Part shown: in pieces, positions 4,573 to 17,323 of the stretch
Layout of the letters: the number at the start of each line of letters is the position of its first letter
Position numbering within the stretch: the stretch's first letter is position 1
Assembly (NCBI GenBank): GCA_020348985.1
Contig: CP070761.1
Span: 2,499,445-2,563,444, forward strand
Source of the DNA: Candidatus Thorarchaeota archaeon
Lineage (GTDB): Archaea > Asgardarchaeota > Thorarchaeia > Thorarchaeales > Thorarchaeaceae
DNA: 64,000 nt
Direction: 5' to 3'
Translations under genes and position numbers: made by a program
Notes under the pieces: generated by a model
What the model was told of the DNA's origin: nothing
The model's input: the letters and a program-made list of their open reading frames with translations, nothing else
The model's database searches: none

Positions 4573-5172
4573 GTGACTCAGATGGGAGACGTGTTTATTC
4601 ACGAGCTTGCCGTAGTTGATGAAGGAGCAGAGATAGGCGAGGGTTCTCGAATCTGGCATTTTGCTCACATCAGGGGAACGGCGAAGATCGGCAAGAACTG
4701 TATAATGGGAAAGGGTGTCTATGTTGACACAGATGTCACTGTAGGTGACAATGTCAAGATACAGAATGGAGTATCTGTCTACCAGGGCGTCACTATAGAA
4801 GACGACGTCTTTCTAGGTCCTCACATGGTCTTCACAAATGACCTCTACCCACGTGCTGTGACAGACACCTGGGAAGTCTCAAACACTCTAGTCAAGCGAG
4901 GTGCATCAATTGGTGCAAATGCAGTCATAGTCTGCAACACAGTATTGGGTGAGTACTGCATGGTCGGGAGTGGATCAGTGGTCACAAAGGATGTGCCGGA
5001 CTACGGATTGGTCGTCGGCAACCCAGCTAGACTTCTAGGCTTCGTCTGCAAATGTGGCAGGCCTGCACAGAAGGAGATCGGCAGGACTGATGAGTTTGTG
5101 ACACTATGGTGTGACCAGTGTGAATCTGATGTCATGATTCCTCTCGAGGATTACAAGAAGATAGTCAGGTAG
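4573..5172 (+). CDS. Hexapeptide-repeat N-acetyltransferase (WbpD/WlbB-like) with C-terminal Zn ribbon
   Basis: Left-handed beta-helix repeats, IWHFAH, KIQNGVSVY, FTNDLYPR, VGNPAR and CKCG...CDQC. Confidence 0.88.
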   Translation: MTQMGDVFIHELAVVDEGAEIGEGSRIWHFAHIRGTAKIGKNCIMGKGVYVDTDVTVGDNVKIQNGVSVYQGVTIEDDVFLGPHMVFTNDLYPRAVTDTWEVSNTLVKRGASIGANAVIVCNTVLGEYCMVGSGSVVTKDVPDYGLVVGNPARLLGFVCKCGRPAQKEIGRTDEFVTLWCDQCESDVMIPLEDYKKIVR

Positions 5173-5179
5173 ACCTGTC

Positions 5180-7258
5180 GTGTCGCATCTGTACAAGAAA
5201 TTCGTAAACGAACGGATATCACACCTGATAGACAACACAGACAGGATCAGGAACTGTACAGTCATTGCGCACATAGACCATGGAAAGACTACATTGACAG
5301 ATTCGCTGATTGCTGCGTCTGGCCTCCTCTCAAAGGATGTAGCGGCCACTGCGAGGCTTCTCGACTATGACATAATTGAACAAGAGAGAGGGATTACGAT
5401 AAAGGCCTCGAGCATCTCACTTGTTCATAGCCTTGGCGAGTATGAATACCTTGTAAATCTCATAGACACACCCGGGCACATCGATTTCTCAAGTCATGTG
5501 ACAAGAGGCCTCCGTCTTACTGATGGTGCAATCATCGTAGTAGACGCAATAGAGGGTGTCATGGTTCAAACAGAGACCGTGACGAGGCAAGCAATGCGTG
5601 AACTTGTCAAGCCAGTTCTCTTTGTCAACAAGATTGACCGACTGATTACCGAAAGAAGGTTGAACTCAAGGAAGGTCGCAAAAGAGGTCAATCGTGTCGT
5701 TCGTGAGTTCAATGCCATGCTTGGCAAGTACCTTGACGACGATCGCTTAGTAGAATGGGAAGTCTCTTTCAGTCGAGGGTCTCTATGTGTTGGTTCAGCT
5801 CTTGACAAATGGGGAATAGGGTTTGAGGACCTACTTCGAGAAAGTGGAGGGAAGGATGACCCTTCAAGTCTTGAGTTCGCATTCCTATCTATGCTAGAAG
5901 GAATTGCAGAAGTATACTCCAAGGAAGAAGAGAAACAGCTTCCAGAAAGCTATCCTGTTGCGAAAGCCATCCTGGATGCGGTCGTCAAAATCGTGCCTAA
6001 CCCAATCCAAGCCCAGCAAGAACGGATACCCACATTCTGGAGCGCACCAGGGGAAGAACAGATTCGCGAGGCTCTTCTTCATTGTAAACCAGATGGCCCC
6101 TGCGTGGCAACGGTTGGTGACGTACAGCCAGATCGCCACGCCGGAACAGTTGCTGCCGTGAGAGTCTTTGCTGGAACCCTGCGAAGAGCTAAGCCATTGA
6201 GAAATACCAGGACTGGAAAGTCTGACAAATCACTACAGGTCGGACTCAATATGTCAAAGTCCAGAGTGGCTTTGCCAGAAGTCCCGGCTGGTAATCTCGC
6301 ATTCATAACTGGCCTTCGCGGTATTGCTGTTGGAGACACTCTCGTGGATGACGATTCAAAGGATATGGGGTTCATGAAAGGACTTGTGTATCCTACCGAG
6401 CCCGTCGTGACATTCACTCTAAGCCCAAAGAAGCTGTCGGAGCTCGGCAACATAGAGACCCCAATCAGGGAGTTTGTTGAAACAGATCCAGGACTTGAGT
6501 TTGAAATCAATGAAGAGACTGGAGAGTATCTGCTGTCTGGTGCAGGTGAGCTTCACATTGAGGTGAGCGTTCAGAAGCTGAATAGGATTGGCATCGACCT
6601 AATCCTTGGAGAACCAATAGTCGTCCTGAAGGAACAGATGACAAAGGACGGAGAGGTGGCAAAAGGAGGGGAACGTCCCTCGAGCACATTTTCAGTTCAA
6701 GCAGTTGTGACACAGCAGGAGCCGGACGCCTCCAAAGGAAGAGTCTTGGACTCGGTTCCACATTCTGATTGCTACCTCGTTGATACATCTGGGACCATTC
6801 CCCCATTCTCAGGAATTGAGGAATGGGTCGTAGAGGGATTTCGATCTGTGGTTAGAAATGGTCCGCTGCGAGGGGAACGAATGAGGAAGCTAACAGGAGT
6901 CATTCGTCAAGCAGAGATAAGCTTGGAGTCTCGAGAGACGTCATGGCGGGATGTGACTCAACCGTTTGTCAATGCGTTGAGATCTAGCATAGAGACCGGT
7001 ACTCCCAGAGTTCTGGAGCCGTGGGTTCATTTGGAGATTAGTGCGCCAGGGGAGCACGTAGGGAGACTAACTGCAATACTTGCCAGAAGAAAGGGTGATG
7101 TGCTCGAAATCGGATCTGAGAGAACACTGTATCTCATAGTCGCTGAGATACCTGTCAGGAAATCATTTGGTCTTGCCACTGAGATTAGAACGGCAACCTC
7201 GGGCTGGGCAACCTGGGGAGCAGAGAGCGGTGGATTCCGGGAAGCACATCTCGACTAG
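5180..7258 (+). CDS. Divergent elongation factor 2 paralog
   Basis: AHIDHGKTT, EQERGITI, DTPGHIDF, NKIDR and GAGELHIE are present. Domain IV lacks the HRG diphthamide loop and the protein ends early. Confidence 0.88.
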   Translation: MSHLYKKFVNERISHLIDNTDRIRNCTVIAHIDHGKTTLTDSLIAASGLLSKDVAATARLLDYDIIEQERGITIKASSISLVHSLGEYEYLVNLIDTPGHIDFSSHVTRGLRLTDGAIIVVDAIEGVMVQTETVTRQAMRELVKPVLFVNKIDRLITERRLNSRKVAKEVNRVVREFNAMLGKYLDDDRLVEWEVSFSRGSLCVGSALDKWGIGFEDLLRESGGKDDPSSLEFAFLSMLEGIAEVYSKEEEKQLPESYPVAKAILDAVVKIVPNPIQAQQERIPTFWSAPGEEQIREALLHCKPDGPCVATVGDVQPDRHAGTVAAVRVFAGTLRRAKPLRNTRTGKSDKSLQVGLNMSKSRVALPEVPAGNLAFITGLRGIAVGDTLVDDDSKDMGFMKGLVYPTEPVVTFTLSPKKLSELGNIETPIREFVETDPGLEFEINEETGEYLLSGAGELHIEVSVQKLNRIGIDLILGEPIVVLKEQMTKDGEVAKGGERPSSTFSVQAVVTQQEPDASKGRVLDSVPHSDCYLVDTSGTIPPFSGIEEWVVEGFRSVVRNGPLRGERMRKLTGVIRQAEISLESRETSWRDVTQPFVNALRSSIETGTPRVLEPWVHLEISAPGEHVGRLTAILARRKGDVLEIGSERTLYLIVAEIPVRKSFGLATEIRTATSGWATWGAESGGFREAHLD

Positions 7259-7266
7259 AAGCAGAG

Positions 7267-9573
7267 TTAGACTCTGAGGTAGTACTTCCGATTCATAATG
7301 TCTCCGAGGAATGAAAGGACTCTTCTGTCCACGAGAGAGACTGAGTCCATCATTCGAAGGGCACGCGTAATATTCGAGAAGACAGCATTGAGGTAGGGTT
7401 GAGCCTGGGCAAGTTCAGCCTCTTCCACCATTTCTAGGTAGTTGTCCGTGATCTTCATCAAACCCAGCCAATCTTCTGTGAGGATTAGATTGATCTCTTC
7501 GTCCCCAAGACTAGAAACTGCCTTCTCACTATCAATCCGGTCGATTTGTGCTCCGAATTGGCCTTCTAGAGCGAGCGCAAATCGCATCAGTGTTTCAGAG
7601 AACGATATGGCGGTGGCACGAATAAACTCTGATGATTCAACGTATTCGGTCTCTACAGCCCCTACCTCAATTAGAATGTTGGCTGCTTGATAAAGTCCGG
7701 TGGCTACTTCAGAATAGTCCCTGTTGTCGTAGTATGCCTTCAGAGTCTTGGCAATAGCGTTCTGTCCGTGCCAATACTGAGCAAGTAGATTGTCAGTCAG
7801 TTCTACTAGTTCTTCTACGGGAGAGAGTGAACGAACTCTGGCCTCCAGACTGATTGCCTGAAGATTCATCTTTCCTGAAGCGAGCGCGATCATGAGCCGT
7901 GCGGCGTCTGCCAGCACTGAATCCTCAGACACCACTTTGGCCGCACGGTCACGCAGAGTAGGCCACTGCTTATTGAGATATGGAACCACAAGTGACACGC
8001 CCTGAATGAAAATCGATTCTTCGTGATCTCGCGCGTCACTAAGCATTCTATCCATGTCTTCGAGAAGCCGCAGAATCTTCTCCGGCAGGGTCTTTCCGTG
8101 GCGAATCGTTAGCCACACTACATTGTACATTGAGATTGCGGCCTCTACAAAAGCACGGGGATCGGATGGAAACAGAGGGAAGTAGCTAACAAGGACCTCC
8201 CTAAGTGTTTCATACATCTCATCGTCAGTGCTCTCAAATGATCTCATCATTGAGAGAACTAGACCAATATGGCTTCCAAGTGCCTCCAGCTCTGAGATGT
8301 GTCCAGTCTGGAGGAGATCCTCTCTGATTCTGATTGCGTTTTGAAATGCCTCAATACCAATAGACCAGAACTCTGTCGAGTCATTAGAGAGACACACCCA
8401 GCCGATTGCATTCTCAACTCGTGCCATTTGGCAACGGATATCAAATCCAGACTGCTCAATTCTCTCCAGTGCCGACTTCGCTCTTGTCATGTACTCAATA
8501 CTGCGGGTAATGCTTCTATCGTCATCTAGCAATCCATGTGCAAAGCCAATTCCAGAGAGAGTCCGAAAAAGAAGGAGCGATTGGGAGACATCTAAATCCG
8601 TTTTGCTTTCGAAGACCTCCAGAGCGGCATTCAGTCGCGTAATCGCTTCGGGAACTGATTCCCTCCACCCATTTGCAAGAATGCTGGAGCCAATGACCAG
8701 ATGGGCCAACCCCAATCCATCCTTTGAAGACTCGCCTTCATCTAATACTTGCCTGAACATCTCCGCAGCATAATCGCCAAGAGTGCGTGCCCTCACATGA
8801 TCAACCGAATCGTCGCGGGTTTCATTGATGCTTAGAGCGAGAGTGATTGCCGCAAGATCGACCGAGCTATTGCGCTGTGTGGCCTCGGTTTCCAATCTCT
8901 TGAGAATAACACGAGCTTGGTCGTATATGCCCAACTCAGTAAGGACAGAAGACTCATCCAGAGAAACGTCGAAGTGTAAGTCATCGATGGACAGGTCCTT
9001 TGTTATCACCATCATTCGGTTCAGCAGTAGCTCTGCACCTTCGAAAAAGCTCGCTTCCGTCAATCTCGCTGTCAGATGGTGGACTTCCCTCAACGCCAAC
9101 CTAGTTGCTGCTTCGTGTCTCTTGTCAACGATGGCGTTGAGGGTCATCAGCACTTCATCTGCAAAGAATGGGAGAACCGGACGGAGGTTAAGCTCAAGGG
9201 CCATGTCAACTGATAGTGAGAGCTCGCCAAGGATGTCGAGAAGGACTTGTACTGCGGCCAGGTCGGGGAGAAGTTCGCTTTCTATCCGTCGGTAATCACT
9301 CGTGTATCTAGTATCTAGTAGCGCAAGCATCTCAGGCAGAACACGGTTCTCTTCAAAAGAAAGTCGGACTACTAGTTCTGTTAGCTTAGCACTTGCGATG
9401 CTTGGCCTCCTGAGTATGATCTCCTCGATAGCTCGAGCGCATTCAAACACAATGTCCGATTCGTCTGACCGTTTTATAGACATCCTTTGGATTGTTGAGA
9501 GTCCGTCGTCAAGGGAGAGAGTGCCACAGAGAATATCCCTCAATGTGACAATCAATACGGACTCCACTTTCAA
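7267..9573 (-). CDS. Large alpha-helical, TPR/alpha-solenoid-like protein
   Basis: 768-aa ORF with repeated helical units such as LGLAHLVIG, IGFAHGLL and ARVENAIGWVC. No catalytic motif recognised. Confidence 0.65.
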   Translation of the reverse strand: MKVESVLIVTLRDILCGTLSLDDGLSTIQRMSIKRSDESDIVFECARAIEEIILRRPSIASAKLTELVVRLSFEENRVLPEMLALLDTRYTSDYRRIESELLPDLAAVQVLLDILGELSLSVDMALELNLRPVLPFFADEVLMTLNAIVDKRHEAATRLALREVHHLTARLTEASFFEGAELLLNRMMVITKDLSIDDLHFDVSLDESSVLTELGIYDQARVILKRLETEATQRNSSVDLAAITLALSINETRDDSVDHVRARTLGDYAAEMFRQVLDEGESSKDGLGLAHLVIGSSILANGWRESVPEAITRLNAALEVFESKTDLDVSQSLLLFRTLSGIGFAHGLLDDDRSITRSIEYMTRAKSALERIEQSGFDIRCQMARVENAIGWVCLSNDSTEFWSIGIEAFQNAIRIREDLLQTGHISELEALGSHIGLVLSMMRSFESTDDEMYETLREVLVSYFPLFPSDPRAFVEAAISMYNVVWLTIRHGKTLPEKILRLLEDMDRMLSDARDHEESIFIQGVSLVVPYLNKQWPTLRDRAAKVVSEDSVLADAARLMIALASGKMNLQAISLEARVRSLSPVEELVELTDNLLAQYWHGQNAIAKTLKAYYDNRDYSEVATGLYQAANILIEVGAVETEYVESSEFIRATAISFSETLMRFALALEGQFGAQIDRIDSEKAVSSLGDEEINLILTEDWLGLMKITDNYLEMVEEAELAQAQPYLNAVFSNITRALRMMDSVSLVDRRVLSFLGDIMNRKYYLRV

Positions 9574-9648: not shown

Positions 9649-10371
9649 CTATTCTTGGCTGCTTTCGAGGATGAACTCGTGCCACTCACGAGATGCCTCG
9701 GTTCCGCGCATCCGCTCCATTCTGACGAAATGACCTGGGGGTGCGCTTGACTCATCAATGTTGAATCGTAGTACTGCGTCGGCAAGGTACGAAAATGTCG
9801 CGTAGGTCTTTTCATCATGAACTCCCTCTTCAAGTACATACATAATACTGTGTGAGCTTTGAGTGATTCTTCCACTTAGCCTTTGAACTGCTCGAGGCAT
9901 TGTAGCAGGATTTGAGTGGAGAATAAGAGTAGATAGACTGTCGACCACAATCCGGGCTACTACGAGGTCCTCAAGAACTTCAAACAACACAATGCCCAGC
10001 TCGCTGATGTCATCAACCTTTGTCAGAGACCTAGTTGAGCCAGCCATAGGAGCTCCCATTCGCTCGGAGTAACCATCTATGAAGACTAGTTTCCCTTCCT
10101 GCTCATACTTCTCAAGGGACCATCCATGACGACTCATATCATTCCTGATGACCCTGGGGGATACGTCTGTTGTCACAATAACTCCAGGGAAACCCTGTCG
10201 TAATCCATCGGCGATATAGGCCTCACCATACGTGGACTTCCCGGAACCAATAGGACCGACAAGCATGACTGATACTTGAGTCAACTGACCAAATTTGACA
10301 AGGTCGCCAATCATCGGCGTAGCAGTGGTCTTGTGCTCTTCCTCTTTGTCGGTCTGCTCCTTCTCACCCAA
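9649..10371 (-). CDS. KaiC/RAD55-family ATPase, single domain (CII-like, degenerate catalytic EE)
   Basis: Walker A GPIGSGKST, Walker B IVVDS, FSYLADAV and RMRG. It has VTTDV where KaiC has the catalytic EE. Confidence 0.85.
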   Translation of the reverse strand: MGEKEQTDKEEEHKTTATPMIGDLVKFGQLTQVSVMLVGPIGSGKSTYGEAYIADGLRQGFPGVIVTTDVSPRVIRNDMSRHGWSLEKYEQEGKLVFIDGYSERMGAPMAGSTRSLTKVDDISELGIVLFEVLEDLVVARIVVDSLSTLILHSNPATMPRAVQRLSGRITQSSHSIMYVLEEGVHDEKTYATFSYLADAVLRFNIDESSAPPGHFVRMERMRGTEASREWHEFILESSQE

Positions 10372-10402: not shown

Positions 10403-11146
10403 TCATCCGGATCCTATCTCGCCCGGGAATACTCTGATTCCGTCCTCAGTTATTCTCATCGAATGGATGCGTGAGCTATGCTGAGAACCCCTCAATTTCA
10501 GTACTTCGATGGACCTTGACCTTGAGGTTTCACTGATCTTCTCATTATAGAGAACTATGACTCCTGAGGCAAGGAACGCCTCGATGTCAAATACTCCCAG
10601 TCCATCATGCTGTTCTGGAATCTCACTGGTCAATACTAGCGTCCGTCCTTCATCCGTCAGATGTGCTGCGAGTTTGAAGAACTCCTCTCTCAGAATGTCA
10701 CGACTCTTGAACTTGTATGCCATTATTGACAACGTGTCCAGCACGATTCTCTTAGCTCCAAGCTTCTTTACGTGATTCATGATGATTGCTTCTAGACCAG
10801 ATAGATCGAAGCTGGGATACTCGCCGATTGTGACTGGCGTGGCTTCTTTCGAGGGAGATAGGTCCACGACGGCTAGTTTGCCTTCTTCCTCCAGCTTCTT
10901 CAAGTCCATGCCAAAACGCAGCATGTTTCTCCGAATCATCTTCGGAGCCTCCTCCAAGGTCACTAGGACACCTGCCTCGTCGTACGTCACAGCTCCGTTG
11001 TATAGGAACTGTGTGGCCAGGATGCTCTTCCCTGTACCTGCTTTTCCCGCAACAAGGATTGTATCCCCTTTGGGAAATCCTCCTTCTATTAGCTCGTCCA
11101 GGCCGGGAATTCCTGTCTTGACACGTTCTATTGTGAATTCACTCAT
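10403..11146 (-). CDS. KaiC-family ATPase, single domain (CI-like)
   Basis: TGIPGLDELIEGG, GKAGTGKS, QFLYNG, VTLEE, B-loop-like DLSP...FDLSGL, KLRG and ITEDGIRVFP. Confidence 0.92.
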   Translation of the reverse strand: MSEFTIERVKTGIPGLDELIEGGFPKGDTILVAGKAGTGKSILATQFLYNGAVTYDEAGVLVTLEEAPKMIRRNMLRFGMDLKKLEEEGKLAVVDLSPSKEATPVTIGEYPSFDLSGLEAIIMNHVKKLGAKRIVLDTLSIMAYKFKSRDILREEFFKLAAHLTDEGRTLVLTSEIPEQHDGLGVFDIEAFLASGVIVLYNEKISETSRSRSIEVLKLRGSQHSSRIHSMRITEDGIRVFPGEIGSG

Positions 11147-11149
11147 TCT

Positions 11150-11476
11150 TCATACCTCGTTGGTTGTTACACGGACTCCCAGAATCATCTTCATGAGCAT
11201 CTCTGGCTCAGGGATACCGGTGATTGACAAGTTTCCTATCATGACTGTAGGCAATGCAAACACACCATACTCTTCTGCTGCCTCGGGAGTCTCGCTGACG
11301 TTGATTACTCTTAGCTTGAACGTTCCGGGTTCAAAGGTTTCAATGGTCTCTCGGACAACCTCCTCTGCACGCGGACAGAAAGCACAGGTATCCGACTTGA
11401 ACAGCACTATCTCCATAGTGTCTGAGTCTTCGACACCGTCTTCTGGGGCCTCATCACTTTCGGCCTTTTCCGCCAA
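11150..11476 (-). CDS. Thioredoxin-fold, KaiB-like protein with CxxC
   Basis: CAFC plus LRVINVSETPEAAEEYGVFALPT. Stop is 3 nt upstream of the KaiC-like gene. TTG start follows a CAGGAG SD-like site. Confidence 0.8.
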   Translation of the reverse strand: MAEKAESDEAPEDGVEDSDTMEIVLFKSDTCAFCPRAEEVVRETIETFEPGTFKLRVINVSETPEAAEEYGVFALPTVMIGNLSITGIPEPEMLMKMILGVRVTTNEV

Positions 11477-11567
11477 TGAGCTGAACTCCTGGACCAGTGA
11501 ACCTCAAGCAGAAGTGGGGCGACCTCTCTTGAATGTTTTGACAAAACTTCACGCGTATTCCTAGCAG

Positions 11568-11954
11568 CTACCGCTTGTACCGCATTATCTGTCGAATCGT
11601 TGTTGCGCCTTTGCCAATAGCGCGTGAGTGATAACGTACACTCTTTGGCATTATTGCGGCAACAAGAAGTGTCTGCTCGTCCCTCGACCCGATCTTTCGA
11701 ATGACCGCCTTGCCAGCACTGCATCTCACTACAATGTCCTTGACCTCTCCAAGCTCAAGGTCCTTCCGCATTCTCTCAACAGTCGAAGCAACATACCCTG
11801 ACATGGCTGCCACCACGTCCGGGTTTGTTCTTGGAGCCACGGCGTTTGCCATCGGCCAGCCGTCATCGCGAGAAAGGACAGAAGCATAGAATCCTCCTTC
11901 CTTGTTCATCTCTTCGAGAACCTTCGTGAGAGCACTGTAGTCAGGTCGCTCCAT
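11568..11954 (-). CDS. Roadblock/LC7 (MglB-like) domain protein
   Basis: 128 aa with the Roadblock pattern: ASVLSRDDGWPMA, VAAMSG, LELGEVKDIVVRC. Confidence 0.85.
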   Translation of the reverse strand: MERPDYSALTKVLEEMNKEGGFYASVLSRDDGWPMANAVAPRTNPDVVAAMSGYVASTVERMRKDLELGEVKDIVVRCSAGKAVIRKIGSRDEQTLLVAAIMPKSVRYHSRAIGKGATTIRQIMRYKR

Positions 11955-12139
11955 TTCAGACCCTCCGGCCTACTTGTCAGCCTCTCAATCACTCAGTGCC
12001 TTATAACAATTCATCGCATATTTCATTCAGCTCGTGCATAGGCGGCCAGAGCACCAATTCCAGACAGAGTTGTTTCAAGCAGTAGGAATGTCAGAAACAG
12101 CTTTTTAGGGGATGGCGCATTCGGGTCTTCAGGAAGGAT

Positions 12140-12682
12140 TTGAGTATCATGCCGGCCGATTACCGCTTCAAGTGCGTCATGATTGGAGATGGTGCTGTCG
12201 GCAAGACCGCCCTCACGGTTCGATTCACTGAGGGCCGCTTTGAAGCCGATTACAAGCGGACGATTGGCAGTGACTTTGCGGTCAAGAGAATTGAGCTGCC
12301 GGACATGGATGCTGGTGTGACGCTGCAAGTATGGGACCTTGCAGGTCAGCCAAGATTCGAGTTTGTACGTCAGTCATTCTATCGTGGCGCGAGAGGAGGG
12401 GTCCTTGTTTATGATGTCACTCGACGACGAACTTTCATGAACTTGGACAGCTGGAAGAAAGAGGCGTTCGATGCTCTTGGAACAGAGATACCTCTTGTAA
12501 TTGTGGCAAACAAGGTAGACCTAGCGGACAGCAGGGTAGTTCCGACTGAAGACGGACAGAAGTACGCGGATGAAAACGGGCACCTCTACGTAGAGTCTTC
12601 AGCCCTGACAGGCGAGAATGTTGAAGAAACCTTTGCCACCCTTTGCAGAAATCTGATTAGTCAGACCAAAGACAGTAGCTAG
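12140..12682 (+). CDS. Rab-like small GTPase
   Basis: GDGAVGKT, TIGSDF, LQVWDLAGQ, FYRGA, LVYDVT, NKVD and SAL. No C-terminal Cys. Confidence 0.93.
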   Translation: MSIMPADYRFKCVMIGDGAVGKTALTVRFTEGRFEADYKRTIGSDFAVKRIELPDMDAGVTLQVWDLAGQPRFEFVRQSFYRGARGGVLVYDVTRRRTFMNLDSWKKEAFDALGTEIPLVIVANKVDLADSRVVPTEDGQKYADENGHLYVESSALTGENVEETFATLCRNLISQTKDSS

Positions 12683-12696
12683 TTGACTAAGCCCAG

Positions 12697-13860
12697 TCAA
12701 TCCAGCTTTCGTGTTTTGCCCTTCAAGAGACCAAGCGCCTTCTTGCACTGCCATTGAATATAGAAGAGCCGCTTATCTTTGAGTGTCTCCTCATCGTACT
12801 GGCCTAGCAGACTCTCGTATTTCTCAATCAGCGCATCCTTCTGAGCCAGTTGGGGATCGCTCTCTATCTCTTTGAGGAGGCTCTCGAACGGAGCCAACAT
12901 CGATGCCAAATCCAAGACATCCCAGCGGAGTATTGCACCAGTTCCATCAGAGCTCAGGAATGAGTGCTCATCATGATACCATTCGAGACCATCAATCTCG
13001 CTGTCTGTTCTACCTTCACCCTCGATTGTGTAGTCCTCAGTCGACCATATGTATAGATCTTTGTCACTTGATCCTGACGCCAAGTATCTCCCGTCACTAC
13101 TGAAGGAAACGGCCCTTACTTCGTTCAGATGGCCTAGCAAGACTCGAGAGCCCTTCAGTGCACCACCCTGAGCGTCCCATATGATGATCGAATTGTCGGA
13201 GGATCCGGACGCCATTGTTGAACCGTCAGTAGTGAACCTGAGTGTATGAACTGCCGTCCTGTGGTCTTCATGCTTCTTAGTAGCCTTGCCGCTCGACGGA
13301 TTCCATTCGATAATGGTCGAATCTACAGAACCGGACACTATCCGGTTGCCGTTCGGATCCCAATCACAAGTCTTTACGTAAAGCGCGTGGCCTCTCAACG
13401 TGGCAAGTTCGCTGTAGTTTGACGTATCCCATATCTTCAGTGTCGTGTCGCCGCTTGCCGATACGAGTCTGTCACCATCAGGAGAAAAGGCAAGCGACAG
13501 AATTGGATAAGAGTGGCCCTCCAAGGTAGCGAGCAATTCTGCTGTTCTGATGTCCCAGAGCTTGACAACTCGACCGACGCTGCCACTGGCCACAATGTCC
13601 CCCTTTGGACTAAATGCAATCGATGTGCAAAGATGGTCGTCAGACATTCTTTGGATTTCTTCACAGTTCCTCGCGTCATAGAGTCGGATTGATTTGTCCT
13701 GAATTGCCGCAGCAAGCATCCTGCCGACTCTGTTCATGGCAAAACGTCTCGTAATCTCAGAGCCATGACTGGCGGCAGGTCTGAGCGTTTGGGGTTTGAG
13801 GAATAGGGATAACTCCTGCTCGGTCATGATTCTGCATCCAGGGCCCGTTAACGTGGTCAC
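12697..13860 (-). CDS. WD40-repeat beta-propeller protein with C-terminal helical tail
   Basis: About 7 GH...WD repeats, e.g. LEGHSYPILSLAFSPDGDRLVSASGDTTLKIWD. The true start may be ATG 13827. Confidence 0.93.
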   Translation of the reverse strand: MTTLTGPGCRIMTEQELSLFLKPQTLRPAASHGSEITRRFAMNRVGRMLAAAIQDKSIRLYDARNCEEIQRMSDDHLCTSIAFSPKGDIVASGSVGRVVKLWDIRTAELLATLEGHSYPILSLAFSPDGDRLVSASGDTTLKIWDTSNYSELATLRGHALYVKTCDWDPNGNRIVSGSVDSTIIEWNPSSGKATKKHEDHRTAVHTLRFTTDGSTMASGSSDNSIIIWDAQGGALKGSRVLLGHLNEVRAVSFSSDGRYLASGSSDKDLYIWSTEDYTIEGEGRTDSEIDGLEWYHDEHSFLSSDGTGAILRWDVLDLASMLAPFESLLKEIESDPQLAQKDALIEKYESLLGQYDEETLKDKRLFYIQWQCKKALGLLKGKTRKLD

Positions 13861-13910
13861 GGCGTGGTGACCCTGCTAAAAGGCTTATGTTAGACGAACT
13901 GGATTGCGTG

Positions 13911-14477
13911 CTATACGAGTCCGCCTGACTCTAGAATCTTGATCGCAAGTTCCAAGAAAGCGGCCTCGACGTTGTGACCCGTCTTGGCAGATGTCTCAAG
14001 GAATGAAGTAATGACACCATGACCCGCTATCTTCTCAGCAAGACCTTTGCCTTCGTCGGTTGTAACGATAGTCTGTGCCATAACAGGGTTGTCCTTGAAT
14101 TGCTCTCGGAGATCGGTCTTGTTGGCTATGAGTACAACGGGAACCTTCTTACCCGCATTCGACCAACACTCATCCACCCAGTTCTGTATGTTGTCAAAAG
14201 AACCTCGCTCCACAACAGAGTAGACAGCCAAGGCTCCTTGGGCGCCCTTATAGAAGGTCGAGCGCACACTCTTGAAATGCTCCTGCCCTGCCAAGTCCCA
14301 AATCTGCACACTGACATCGTGACCTCCAGCAAGCTGCATCTTCTTCACGGCGAAGTCTGCACCGATGGTGAGGTGGTATTGTGCTCTGAATCCTTCGCCC
14401 ATGTAGGTACGTCTCAGGGAAGTCTTGCCGACGCTCCCGTCGCCCATGAGGACTATCTTGAATAGGGCAGTGACCAT
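13911..14477 (-). CDS. Rab-like small GTPase
   Basis: GDGSVGKT, TIGADF, QIWDLAGQ, FYKGA, NKTD and SAKTG. No C-terminal Cys. Confidence 0.93.
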   Translation of the reverse strand: MVTALFKIVLMGDGSVGKTSLRRTYMGEGFRAQYHLTIGADFAVKKMQLAGGHDVSVQIWDLAGQEHFKSVRSTFYKGAQGALAVYSVVERGSFDNIQNWVDECWSNAGKKVPVVLIANKTDLREQFKDNPVMAQTIVTTDEGKGLAEKIAGHGVITSFLETSAKTGHNVEAAFLELAIKILESGGLV

Positions 14478-14759
14478 TTTGCGACCACCGATTTTCTACG
14501 AGCGGACAGGCGCTATTTGATGTTTCCGATGGAATGCCGTCCGATTCTTTGAAGAAACGAAAACGAACGCATCATATGAAAGTTGCGTGTTCAACTTCAG
14601 GGCAGAATACTTTCAGTAATCAGTCCGCCTCAGCATAGTACTTCCAGACCGACTTCCAACATGAGCAAAGGTCAGATTTGTTCGAGACTAGATATACTGT
14701 CTACCCAGTGTAGAGAACCCCCTCCCTCCCCTGCATATATCGAGTAACGGATTGCGAGG

Positions 14760-15044
14760 ATGAAAGCGTTGGGACGAACCGTAAGGACATTCAGAAATGC
14801 TGTTGATTCAGAGCAAGCCAGATGGCATGACTTCAGGCGCACACTCAGACCAGCTCATAGAGATCGCCTGGACCGGATTTTCGACTATGCACGAAAGTGT
14901 GCTGATGCGGGAACCATGATTGCATCAGCGAGAATTTCGGAAGTCGTCTTTATCTCCACGATGATGGAGATGCTCAGCGAGATTGACTCCCTCAAACAGA
15001 CAGTATCGGACCTCAAGAGCCAGACTGAGGAGACTGCTCCCTGA
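14760..15044 (+). CDS. Small helical protein of the type encoded with archaeal PolB2
   Basis: GRTVRTFR...WHDFRRTLR...DRIFDYAR pattern. Its stop overlaps the PolB2 start (TGATG). Confidence 0.7.
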   Translation: MKALGRTVRTFRNAVDSEQARWHDFRRTLRPAHRDRLDRIFDYARKCADAGTMIASARISEVVFISTMMEMLSEIDSLKQTVSDLKSQTEETAP

Positions 15045-17323
15045 TGAAGAGAGTCGGCTGGCTGCTCGATGCCAGTGTGGACCACAAACGTCAGGCATTA
15101 ACGCTCTGGATTAAGGTGGAGGGAAAGACAAGAGGGTATGTGTATCATGGTTTCAGTTCGTCCGTATTCGTAAGAACCGACCTTCTTGACAGTCACAATT
15201 GGACTGATAGCAATCTACTAGGAGTAGTTCGAGAACACGACGGAGTACTTGCAGCAACTATCACTGAGAAGTTTGTCAGTGTCTATGATGCTGAAAAGAA
15301 GAGAGTCCTGCAGATATTCACCACACCGGACATGCACTGGGAAGTAACCCGGGACCTAGAGAAGCTGCCAGGTGCAACAGTCTTCCACGCGGACATCGAT
15401 CCAGTTCAGCAGTTCTTCATCATGCAGGAGATATTCCCATTTGGCCGTGTTGAATTCGAGGAAAAAAATGGCTGTATCACTACCATCACATGTCTTGATA
15501 GCCGAGAGGATGTGGAGTACGAAATCCCAGAACTGGATGAAATCAGGATTGAAGTCTTTGCGGACACCGACCGGATTGTTCCTGATGTTGAGGATCCAAT
15601 TCACCACATTGAGATTCATCATAGAGATGGTGTGATACGTGTTGAGGACGTTGACGAGCAGAGACTGTTGACTGCTTTTCAGGAGACCATCGGCGAACTC
15701 GACCCCGATGTGGTTGTGACCAGAGGTGGCGATGACACTCTGTTCAGATACCTGACTCTTCGTGCTAATCTGAATGGAGTCCAGTTAACACTCTCAAGGG
15801 ACGGGACACCCTTGCGAGTGGTCCAGAAGAAATCGCAATCGTTCTGGCAGTACAATCAGATTGTCTATCGACCGGGAAATCAGGTGATGTTTACCGGACG
15901 GATTCACATTGATCGGGGAGAAAGCCTGTACTATTCACCGTCTGGGATTGAAGGAATCATCGAGGGCTGCAGACTTGCTTTTGCACAGCCCCAGAGAGTT
16001 GCACGAATGTCAATAGGCAGCGTGAACGCGGCAGTCCAGTACTATAACGCATTCAAGATGGACATCCTGATACCGCCAATCAAACGCAACCCCGAGTTTC
16101 TCAAATCAATAAGCGACCTGAGAGATATTGACAGGGGAGGACTAATACTTCAGCCAAAACCCGACATCTACGAAGACATTGCGGAATGCGATTTCTCTTC
16201 CATGTATCCAACCCTGATGGTTACACGGAATATCAGCCCTGAGACAATATGTACACGTGATCAGTGCCCATACGATTACGACTACTGCACCGATGTTCCA
16301 GGACTGAGCTTCAAGCTCTGCACTAAAAGGAGAGGTATAGTAGCTGAATCACTAGATCTTGTAGTCAGGAAACGCAATGAATTCAAGCGACTCATTGAAG
16401 AGGGAAAGGACGCGAGAAAATACGAATTGATGCAGAATACCCTCAAGGGCGTTCTGGTCTCCTGTTTTGGATATCTTGGCTTCAAGAACGCGAGGTTCGG
16501 GAGGGTCGAGGCGCATACAGCAGTGACTGCACTGGCACGCGAAGTCATGCTCAGAACGCAGGATATTGGTGAGTCAATGGGACTCGAGCTGATACATGGC
16601 ATTGTGGACTCGGTATGGCTCAGGTCGGAAGACAAGATTGACCATCGGCATGTGGAAGAATTCTGTAGGCAGGTTACAGACGACCTGGACATCAAGATGT
16701 CACTAAAAGGCGTTTACAAATGGTTGGTGATTCCCTCATCGCGGATGCACCCATCAATTGCGCCATTGAACCGGTATTATGGTGTCTATCGCAATGGTGG
16801 AATTAAGACCCGTGGAATCGAGACTAGACGACGAGATACTTGTCTCTATGTGGGTGATTGTCAGACAGCAATGATCAAGACGCTGGCCCGAGGACGAGAT
16901 AAGAGCGGGTTCTTGGAGAGAATACCTGATGCATACGCAGTCTGCCAGAGCTACATAGACCGCCTACACGAGGGAGATGTGGACTTGAGAGACCTTATTC
17001 TTCACTCTCGACTTACTCGTGAGCCGGCAGAATATCGTGCAACGTCACGGGCAGCCATAGTAGCACAGCAATTGGTAAAAGCAGGAAAGGATCTCCATGC
17101 AGGACAGAAGGTCCGGTATGTTCTTTCGAGTGTGGACTCGCCGAGCCCTGTGCGAAGAGTCAAGGCTGTGGAATTGATTGATGAAACTGTCCGCTATGAC
17201 CCAGAAGCCTACGCAGTTCTTTGCGAGAGAGCATTTGAGAACTTGATACCTGCACAGTACCTTGACAAACATAGACCATCAAAGCCAGGCGAGGAGACTC
17301 AAACCCTAATCAGATGGACATAG
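15044..17323 (+). CDS. polB2: Family B DNA polymerase, PolB2 clade
   Basis: DFSSMYP, KGVLVSCFGYLG, HGIVDS (in place of YGDTDS) and RGIETRRRD. Exonuclease motifs are eroded. Confidence 0.9.
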   Translation: MKRVGWLLDASVDHKRQALTLWIKVEGKTRGYVYHGFSSSVFVRTDLLDSHNWTDSNLLGVVREHDGVLAATITEKFVSVYDAEKKRVLQIFTTPDMHWEVTRDLEKLPGATVFHADIDPVQQFFIMQEIFPFGRVEFEEKNGCITTITCLDSREDVEYEIPELDEIRIEVFADTDRIVPDVEDPIHHIEIHHRDGVIRVEDVDEQRLLTAFQETIGELDPDVVVTRGGDDTLFRYLTLRANLNGVQLTLSRDGTPLRVVQKKSQSFWQYNQIVYRPGNQVMFTGRIHIDRGESLYYSPSGIEGIIEGCRLAFAQPQRVARMSIGSVNAAVQYYNAFKMDILIPPIKRNPEFLKSISDLRDIDRGGLILQPKPDIYEDIAECDFSSMYPTLMVTRNISPETICTRDQCPYDYDYCTDVPGLSFKLCTKRRGIVAESLDLVVRKRNEFKRLIEEGKDARKYELMQNTLKGVLVSCFGYLGFKNARFGRVEAHTAVTALAREVMLRTQDIGESMGLELIHGIVDSVWLRSEDKIDHRHVEEFCRQVTDDLDIKMSLKGVYKWLVIPSSRMHPSIAPLNRYYGVYRNGGIKTRGIETRRRDTCLYVGDCQTAMIKTLARGRDKSGFLERIPDAYAVCQSYIDRLHEGDVDLRDLILHSRLTREPAEYRATSRAAIVAQQLVKAGKDLHAGQKVRYVLSSVDSPSPVRRVKAVELIDETVRYDPEAYAVLCERAFENLIPAQYLDKHRPSKPGEETQTLIRWT

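Follow-up and report, generated by a model that had tools for sequence, protein, structure and literature searches.

The Thor-Rab GTPase gene and a Roadblock–thioredoxin–KaiC operon in Thorarchaeota: a possible MglA/MglB-like switch tied to a KaiC hub

In a 64,000-nucleotide stretch of the genome of a Candidatus Thorarchaeota archaeon (GenBank assembly GCA_020348985.1, contig CP070761.1, positions 2,499,445 to 2,563,444 of the forward strand; hereafter, the window), the gene for a Rab-like GTPase, named here GTPase1, lies divergently from a Roadblock gene, the first of an operon-like run that also encodes a thioredoxin-fold protein (Trx), two single-domain KaiC-like proteins (KaiC1 and KaiC2) and a solenoid of the tetratricopeptide repeat (TPR) type. 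Sequence comparison identifies GTPase1 as the ortholog of Thor-Rab, a GTPase that has been crystallised (PDB 7EZB), and GTPase1, Roadblock, Trx, KaiC1 and KaiC2 form a core unit that is specific to the Thorarchaeota order. The interpretation favoured here, to which we would give a probability of about 0.5, is that GTPase1 and the Roadblock–Trx–KaiC1–KaiC2 operon constitute one functional unit, with the TPR protein added as a scaffold in one family (f1), and that this unit is an MglA/MglB-like switch tied to a KaiC hub. The gene identities, folds, motifs, gene order and conservation from which this interpretation starts were all directly observed. The genes and the region concerned are the following.

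12140-12682, plus strand: GTPase1, Rab-like, assigned by sequence as Thor-Rab ortholog; 180 amino acids; Pfam Ras E=2.9e-51
11568-11954, minus strand: Roadblock/LC7 (MglB-like) protein, first gene of the operon; 128 amino acids; Pfam Robl_LC7 E=7.9e-5
11150-11476, minus strand: thioredoxin-fold protein (Trx), weakly KaiB-like; Pfam Thioredoxin_3 5.5e-10
10403-11146, minus strand: KaiC1, single-domain KaiC-like ATPase; 247 amino acids; Pfam KaiC 4e-71
9649-10371, minus strand: KaiC2, single-domain KaiC-like protein; 240 amino acids; Pfam KaiC 8.1e-30
7267-9573, minus strand: TPR-like alpha-solenoid, last gene of the operon; 768 amino acids; no Pfam match
11955-12148, no strand: divergent promoter region between Roadblock and GTPase1, with two TATA-like boxes

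The Thor-Rab ortholog and its Roadblock neighbour

The best match of GTPase1 among solved structures was the Thorarchaeota Rab of entries 7ezb, 7ezd and 7eze (phmmer E=2e-84 over 176 residues), followed in the PDB by Rab14, Rab11, Rab2 and Rab1. Thor-Rab, from Thorarchaeota SMTZ1-45, has a Rab-like fold (PDB 7EZB/7EZD/7EZE; Tran et al. 2024, PMC10933270). These authors reported that its unassisted GTP hydrolysis is slow, that it is devoid of prenylation cysteines and that its Arg37 sits where MglA has its intrinsic arginine finger, Arg53; they also mapped RabF1-F5 on the protein and reported no REP or GGTase homologs. The genomic context of Thor-Rab is not given in that work, which states that the layout of the MK-D1 genome does not reveal GTPase–Roadblock partners. 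In the present analysis, a protein (P0146) that is 100% identical to the crystallised 7ezb chain was found encoded in another genome, G267, where the layout is that of the window: Roadblock at 7415-7792 (minus strand) and Thor-Rab at 7928-8473 (plus strand), with a spacer of 135 nt, within the order Lrp, EF-2-like, TPR, KaiC2, KaiC1, Trx, Roadblock, Thor-Rab, WD40, insert, GTPase2 and PolB. GTPase1 and Thor-Rab are alike in the arginine, in length and in having no prenylation cysteines. The crystallised Thor-RB (7f8m) was considered as the Roadblock neighbour of Thor-Rab and discarded, as it is a different paralog (E about 1e-3).

All five G motifs can be read in GTPase1 (GDGAVGKT, T41, WDLAGQ, NKVD and SSAL), the third of them with the DxxGQ signature. 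Inspection also recovered RabF1-F5 as IGxDF, LQ(V/I)WD, RF..VR..F, FY(R/K)GA and LVYDVT, the last read in GTPase1, whose own versions of three of these stretches are TIGSDF, LQVWDLAGQ and FYRGA. The protein keeps the switch II Gln and ends in ...QTKDSS, with no C-terminal Cys. Since neither GTPase1 nor the second GTPase of the cluster (GTPase2) has prenylation cysteines, and no REP or GGTase homologs have been reported, both are best described as Rab-like proteins and not as bona fide Rabs. In switch I, GTPase1 reads K39-R40-T41, with an MglA-like Arg directly before the Thr; of 20 family orthologs, 19 retain Arg40-Thr41 and one has a His in place of the Arg. The possibility that the Arg-Thr pair is unique to GTPase1 was discarded, as two other GTPase open reading frames (ORFs) of the same genome carry it.

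The Roadblock protein scores 22.8 bits with Pfam Robl_LC7, marginally below the cut-off of 23, and most of its orthologs carry PF03259 in precomputed annotation. Its AlphaFold2 (AF2) model, with a mean predicted local distance difference test (pLDDT) of 90.7, presents the canonical Roadblock sandwich (alpha-beta-beta-alpha-beta-beta-beta-alpha). In Foldseek searches, this model gave template modelling (TM) scores of 0.82-0.85 with MglB, MglA-bound MglB included, at probability 1.00, and of 0.84 with MK-D1 Roadblock3, the match to LAMTOR2 being poorer than that to MglB (about 0.71). The C-terminal helix is basic and conserved, and R107, Y108, R111 and K115 are invariant. A search of 5.8 billion proteins recovered 88 homologs, all of them orthologs at 54% identity or more, and nearly all those with a name were labelled Thorarchaeota.

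The proximity of a Roadblock gene to a GTPase gene exceeds chance in the genome of the window (3.16 Mb). With 8 Roadblock-like and 30 GTPase-like ORFs, 0.15 pairs within 500 nt were expected and two were observed: two of the eight Roadblock-like ORFs, namely that of the cluster and one beside an MglA-like GTPase ORF, lie within this distance of a GTPase gene. The second one is outside the window (G000:C1:1316056-1317001) and shares its strand with a divergent MglA-like GTPase ORF, at a distance of 11 nt; this is probably the classical MglA/MglB pair of the genome. As a separate observation, a GTPase-like ORF also outside the window (G000:C1:295607-296245) ends in ...KRCMMR, the sole CaaX-like C-terminus among the 30 GTPase ORFs.

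Conservation of the core unit and its interpretation

Gene order was compared in 20 genomes from 16 genera of family f1, the sister family f2 being represented by genome G025. In G004, GTPase1 remains with Roadblock–Trx–KaiC1–KaiC2–TPR, and the region past GTPase1 is rearranged. In G025, GTPase1, Roadblock, Trx, KaiC1 and KaiC2 follow one another on a single strand in an operon-like manner, the GTPase1–Roadblock gap being 64 nt. A survey of 301 phylum genomes located Trx orthologs solely in f1 (75/76) and f2 (1/1), and KaiC2 orthologs solely in f1 (70/76) and f2 (1/1), with paralogs of at most 33% identity elsewhere. The linkage in G004 and G025, together with the confinement of Trx, KaiC2 and Roadblock orthologs to one order, is the basis for delimiting a five-gene, order-specific core. 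The TPR protein, whose gene is absent from the G025 operon, and the WD40 protein encoded past GTPase1 are found solely in f1.

Trx has an invariant C-x-F-C-P-R-A motif, with CxxC kept in all orthologs checked; its match to Pfam KaiB (4.1e-5, 23.7 bits) falls under the cut-off of 27. KaiC1 has an intact Walker A and the catalytic TLEE, motifs that are conserved in 20 orthologs. KaiC2 keeps Walker A, and its catalytic EE is replaced by an invariant TD (TTDV). The 768-residue protein resembles TPR proteins in ESM Atlas features (0.95 to TPR clusters) and in structure (TM 0.53 to TPR_12 proteins). Small domains of the Thioredoxin_3 type recur in other Asgard families as parts of signalling proteins: in one case, a Trx-V4R-V4R protein is encoded directly upstream of a Ras-like GTPase (L095:5384-6919, plus strand), and in another the arrangement is PAS-Trx-histidine kinase, reminiscent of the KaiB-like domain of SasA (L096:5478-7511, plus strand).

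A further piece of information came from another Asgard family, f5, where a search for the FIST family in 151 genomes of the phylum, followed by profile and Pfam scans, uncovered an operon encoding KaiC, Roadblock, FIST and a Ras-like GTPase, in this order and on one strand, in five genomes (loci L086, L090-L092 and L094). A KaiC-like ATPase, a Roadblock protein and a small GTPase are thus also gathered there in a tight unit, although this is not orthologous to the cluster: identity is 28% for KaiC and 31% for the GTPase, and similarity between the Roadblock proteins is undetectable. Moreover, a FIST sensor replaces Trx, there is one KaiC instead of two, and the gene order differs. In view of these low identities, the f5 operon links KaiC, Roadblock and GTPase genes independently of the cluster.

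For the way in which the unit would operate, we infer the following protein–protein contacts and direction of signalling. Roadblock, probably as an MglB-like dimer, would bind GTP-bound GTPase1 and act as an MglB-type GTPase-activating protein (GAP) for Thor-Rab. To accelerate the slow intrinsic hydrolysis, it would bring two residues of the GTPase itself, Arg40 of switch I and Gln70 of switch II, into position. MglB reportedly activates MglA in this manner, through the equivalent Arg and Gln of the GTPase (Miertzschke et al. 2011, cited in PMC10933270). The active KaiC1 and the non-hydrolysing KaiC2 would form an ATP-driven hub, the state of which, possibly set by the redox condition of the CxxC-containing thioredoxin/KaiB-like protein, would control the availability of Roadblock to the GTPase. 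This more specific proposal, namely that Roadblock–Trx–KaiC1–KaiC2 is a dedicated regulator of the Rab-like GTPase, with an MglB-type GAP gated by an ATP-driven, redox-sensitive KaiC hub, is advanced only tentatively.

The notion of a functional unit has to be confronted with the simpler idea that the adjacency is mere conserved synteny, in which case a self-contained KaiC signalling module would use Roadblock as a KaiC adaptor, and GTPase1, WD40 and GTPase2 would be unrelated to it, remaining nearby only through the collinearity of genomes in this clade. Several observations weigh against our interpretation and fit this one. The whole Lrp-to-PolB block (12 genes, 14 kb, the EF-2-like gene included) is collinear in about 16 of the 20 f1 genomes, so synteny within the family says little about function. 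The EF-2-like (5180-7258, plus strand) and Lrp (4573-5172, plus strand) genes stay beside the operon even in G025 and, as they are equally linked, neighbourhood conservation alone does not single out GTPase1. In G005, a break falls between Roadblock and GTPase1, showing that the pair is separable. Likewise, when branch-rate covariation was computed for nine proteins on a fixed 12-genome tree, Roadblock and GTPase1 gave r=-0.32 and no pair was significant. To these points it must be added that the whole comparative depth is confined to one order, that the GTPase1 ortholog of the sister family has Ser-Thr-Thr in place of Lys-Arg-Thr, and that the two other Arg-Thr GTPase ORFs of the genome have no Roadblock neighbour. 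As the sister-family ortholog and one family member are without the Arg, an arginine-finger mechanism cannot be universal.

However, mere synteny does not account well for the behaviour of GTPase1 where the block is disrupted. In G025, the gene did not drift off, but flipped its orientation and joined the operon strand upstream of Roadblock, and in G004 it was kept with the operon at the breakpoint. In addition, the non-orthologous f5 lineage joins KaiC, Roadblock and a Ras-like GTPase in a tight operon, and Roadblock proteins are established regulators of GTPases (MglB, PDB 3t12, 6izw). Taken together, these facts make the synteny explanation a doubtful one, albeit deserving serious attention.

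A different objection accepts the partnership of Roadblock and GTPase1 and questions its nature: Roadblock might serve as an exchange factor, an effector or a localisation scaffold instead of a GAP, with KaiC lying downstream of the GTPase. Roadblock-fold complexes can indeed be guanine nucleotide exchange factors (GEFs) or scaffolds (Ragulator entries are among the Foldseek matches), MglB has been called a 'potential GAP', with open questions remaining (PMC13408092), and a partner could dock on the basic, conserved helix at the C-terminus of Roadblock; the missing arginine finger of the sister-family ortholog points in the same direction. Nevertheless, the fold of Roadblock is closest to that of MglB, most GTPase1 orthologs keep the intrinsic Arg and Gln that an MglB-type GAP needs, and the unassisted hydrolysis of Thor-Rab is slow (PMC10933270). 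We consider a non-GAP role unlikely.

The preliminary description of this DNA had proposed that both GTPases are the input or output of the adjacent Kai-like module, and had suggested synteny across Asgard genomes as a way to examine it. The link held for GTPase1, which accompanies the operon in G004 and G025 and finds a parallel in the f5 operon, although it is split from Roadblock in G005; it did not hold for GTPase2 and WD40, which are separable from the rest. As an independent observation, the members of genus g2 carry a 1.2-kb insert between GTPase1 and Roadblock (L029:7457-8425, plus strand; L015:7535-8387) with an ORF of 322 amino acids, split in L015, for which only a weak Pfam match of the seven-transmembrane (7TM) type was obtained.

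The layout of the locus, the WD40 protein and GTPase2

Two further genes follow GTPase1 in the window.

12697-13860, minus strand: WD40 protein, 7-blade propeller; Pfam WD40 7e-49
13911-14477, minus strand: GTPase2, second Rab-like GTPase; 188 amino acids; Pfam Ras E=3.5e-47

Pfam searches confirmed that Roadblock, GTPase1, WD40 and GTPase2 are real genes at the positions listed, beside the Kai-like operon, as initially described. In the minus-strand run Roadblock–Trx–KaiC1–KaiC2–TPR, the successive gaps are 91, 3, 31 and 75 nt. GTPase1 and WD40 are convergent, with 14 nt between their stop codons, and GTPase2 lies upstream of WD40 on the same strand, in agreement with the co-orientation previously noted. 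The divergent arrangement of Roadblock and GTPase1 across a 185-nt spacer, also part of that description, is correct if GTPase1 starts at the TTG at 12140; with the ATG at 12149 the spacer measures 194 nt. This ATG is likely the true start, being better supported than the TTG because it is preceded by AGGAAGGA and agrees with the N-termini of the orthologs. Similarly, the true start of WD40 is probably the ATG at 13827, given that residues 1-14 are disordered and unaligned in orthologs.

Within the divergent spacer, a TATA-like box at about 12000-12009 was assigned to the Roadblock operon, and TTTTTAGG, at about 12103-12110, to GTPase1. Alignment of 18 such intergenic regions revealed two conserved TATA-like blocks, C.TAT..TAAA..AT and TTTTAAG/TTTTTAG; a shared operator was sought in the same alignment of 18 divergent spacers and none was seen. 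A TTTTAG box resembling that of GTPase1 is located ~50 nt 5' of the WD40 ATG, which suggests that WD40 is driven by its own promoter. An Rfam scan of positions 11000-15200, at E up to 1, gave no match. At the far end of the cluster, a 94-residue ORF (window 14760-15044, plus strand), without family assignment, overlaps the start of PolB; it is conserved in 19 related loci, with 43-69% identity, and adjoins PolB in every related locus whose fetched stretch includes PolB.

The AF2 model of the WD40 protein (pLDDT 91.9) contains 28 strands, residues 19-317 forming seven four-stranded blades, as had been anticipated from the sequence, followed by a C-terminal helical tail (residues 318-375). Foldseek returned TM scores, normalised by target, of 0.92 to 7-bladed propellers, matches that are generic and offer no partner-specific clue. 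No WD40 ortholog was found in genomes G004, G174 and G025.

GTPase2 is 40% identical to GTPase1. Its G motifs are GDGSVGKT, T37, WDLAGQ, NKTD and TSAK, it presents TIGADF, VQIWDLAGQ and FYKGA, and it ends in ...ESGGLV, keeping the switch II Gln and having no C-terminal Cys. The earlier assertion that both GTPases possess RabF-like motifs and the switch II Gln, and are without prenylation cysteines, is thus borne out by the sequences. In switch I, GTPase2 reads H-L-T, the MglA-like Arg not being present. Mean column identity over 20 orthologs is 82%. An insert of nine residues (REQFKDNPV..., at about 124-133), which immediately follows the G4 NKxD and occupies the site of the Rho insert, is present in 20 of 20 orthologs, sister family included. 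In G004, GTPase2 is found on another contig, among redox enzyme genes, and in G025 it is also elsewhere, among unrelated genes. GTPase2 is consequently an old but separable gene.

In six related genera (L019:12509-13744, plus strand; L017, L023, L024, L027 and L028), a gene for a protein of ~400 amino acids, on the opposite strand, is inserted between WD40 and GTPase2. It combines N-terminal HEAT repeats with a conserved C-terminal domain, and its model in the ESM Atlas is similar to beta-COP and AP-2 alpha (TM about 0.5). This HEAT/adaptin-like gene is missing from the window locus. The scattered occurrence of the insert gene on the concatenated tree suggests that the tight GTPase2–WD40 spacing of the window arose by deletion. 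Eight proteins encoded elsewhere in the genome of the window share the C-terminal domain of the insert gene.

These genes bring up the idea that all nine genes constitute one eukaryote-like machine, either a nutrient sensor of the Rag/Ragulator type or a proto-coat with propeller and solenoid recruited by the Rab-like GTPases. A propeller, a TPR solenoid and two Rab-like GTPases do occur inside 7 kb, the insert of the six genera has its beta-COP/AP-2 alpha-like character, and WD40–GTPase2 was the pair with the highest rate covariation (r=0.42), although not significant. However, Rag GTPases have a C-terminal roadblock domain and form heterodimers, and Ragulator is a pentamer. The cluster shows none of these features: each GTPase consists of a single G domain (180 and 188 amino acids) and there is one Roadblock gene, so that the shared theme is reduced to Roadblock-fold proteins regulating small GTPases. 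The likeness to eukaryotic nutrient-sensing assemblies entertained in the preliminary description did not survive, since both GTPases are Rab-like proteins with a single domain and the Roadblock model resembles MglB more closely than LAMTOR2. Nor does the locus conform to a protocoatomer: two genes separated by 3 kb, and belonging to different transcription units, encode the propeller and the solenoid. Their pairing is not obligate, as the G025 operon has no solenoid gene and no WD40 ortholog was found in G004, G174 or G025. With GTPase2 unlinked in G004 and G025, the adaptin-like gene missing at the window locus and the WD40 model matching only generic propellers, a single machine is highly improbable. 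WD40 and GTPase2 accompany the core at the family level, probably under promoters of their own, and are at most optional downstream or parallel parts of the unit formed by GTPase1 and the operon.

Comparison with known systems and significance

The closest parallel to the GTPase1–Roadblock pair is provided by MglA/MglB of Thermus thermophilus and Myxococcus xanthus (PDB 3t12, 6izw, 6h5b). In both cases the gene for a small Ras-superfamily GTPase adjoins a Roadblock-fold gene, and GTPase1 shares with MglA the Arg before the switch I Thr (MglA Arg53) and the switch II Gln. In contrast, MglA is defined by a G3 without the conserved Asp and by a bacterial insert between G1 and G2 (PMC4316618), while both GTPases of the cluster keep the G3 Asp (WDLAGQ). 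Because it keeps this Asp and the RabF motifs, GTPase1 can be classified as Ras/Rab-type. A second difference is that the pair described here is also joined to KaiC-type ATPases and Trx. In a 2014 census, MglB was coupled to 404 of 488 MglA proteins and to 0 of 121 prokaryotic GTPases of the Ras/Rup type (PMC4316618); the cluster is a case of a Ras/Rab-type GTPase gene coupled with a Roadblock gene, of which that census had none.

The actinobacterial conservon, or mfp operon, encodes the histidine kinase CvnA, the Roadblock protein CvnB, CvnC and the MglA-like GTPase CvnD (PMC4316618; PMC13015309). Like this operon, the cluster links a Roadblock protein and a small GTPase to a signalling enzyme that uses ATP, but it has a KaiC-type pair instead of a histidine kinase, a Rab-like GTPase instead of one of MglA group 2, no CvnC-like gene and an archaeal host. 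In Asgard archaea, an operon for a LAMTOR1-like Roadblock protein, a Rab-like GTPase and a DENN protein has been reported in most lineages (Liu et al., 10.1101/2020.10.19.343400). It likewise places a Roadblock-superfamily gene beside a Rab-like GTPase gene, whereas in the cluster no DENN-domain protein was found, the partners are KaiC-type ATPases, Trx and TPR, and the distribution is restricted to one order. The label 'eukaryote-signature' under which the genes were first described is overstated for Roadblock and WD40, as both are common in prokaryotes (PMC12962969; 10.1101/2020.10.19.343400). No paper describing the cluster was found, the KaiC-neighbourhood tables of Makarova et al. 2017 (PMC5717392) lying outside the literature covered.

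The cluster does not correspond to the KaiABC clock, which is made of a double-domain KaiC, KaiB and KaiA. Here there are two separate genes for single-domain KaiC-like proteins. Thioredoxin_3 is the top-scoring family of the small protein, which has CxxC and whose KaiB match is below the cut-off, and a scan of ten genes of the cluster and its immediate surroundings gave no match to a KaiA family. Judged from these comparisons, the cluster appears to work most like MglA/MglB and the conservon, and it is a member of neither.

To our knowledge, almost none of the dozens of Rab-, Arf- and Rag-like GTPases of Asgard archaea has been matched to a regulator. The one Asgard Rab-like GTPase known both from a crystal structure and from a measured, slow rate of hydrolysis is now found to have a conserved MglB-type neighbour, and it also carries the Arg used by an MglB-type GAP, which makes this a directly testable pair of proteins known to express in E. 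coli. In this way, an orphan but structurally solved GTPase gains candidate regulators, and the cluster provides one more example for the view that KaiC-type ATPases of archaea are signalling hubs. Should the proposed regulation prove true, the operon would be the first set of cognate regulators assigned to a Rab-like GTPase of Asgard archaea, and the adaptin-like gene and the propeller encoded at the same locus in related genera might be effectors. It would also mean that prokaryotic Roadblock/KaiC circuitry ran Rab-type switches before eukaryotic GAPs and GEFs existed.

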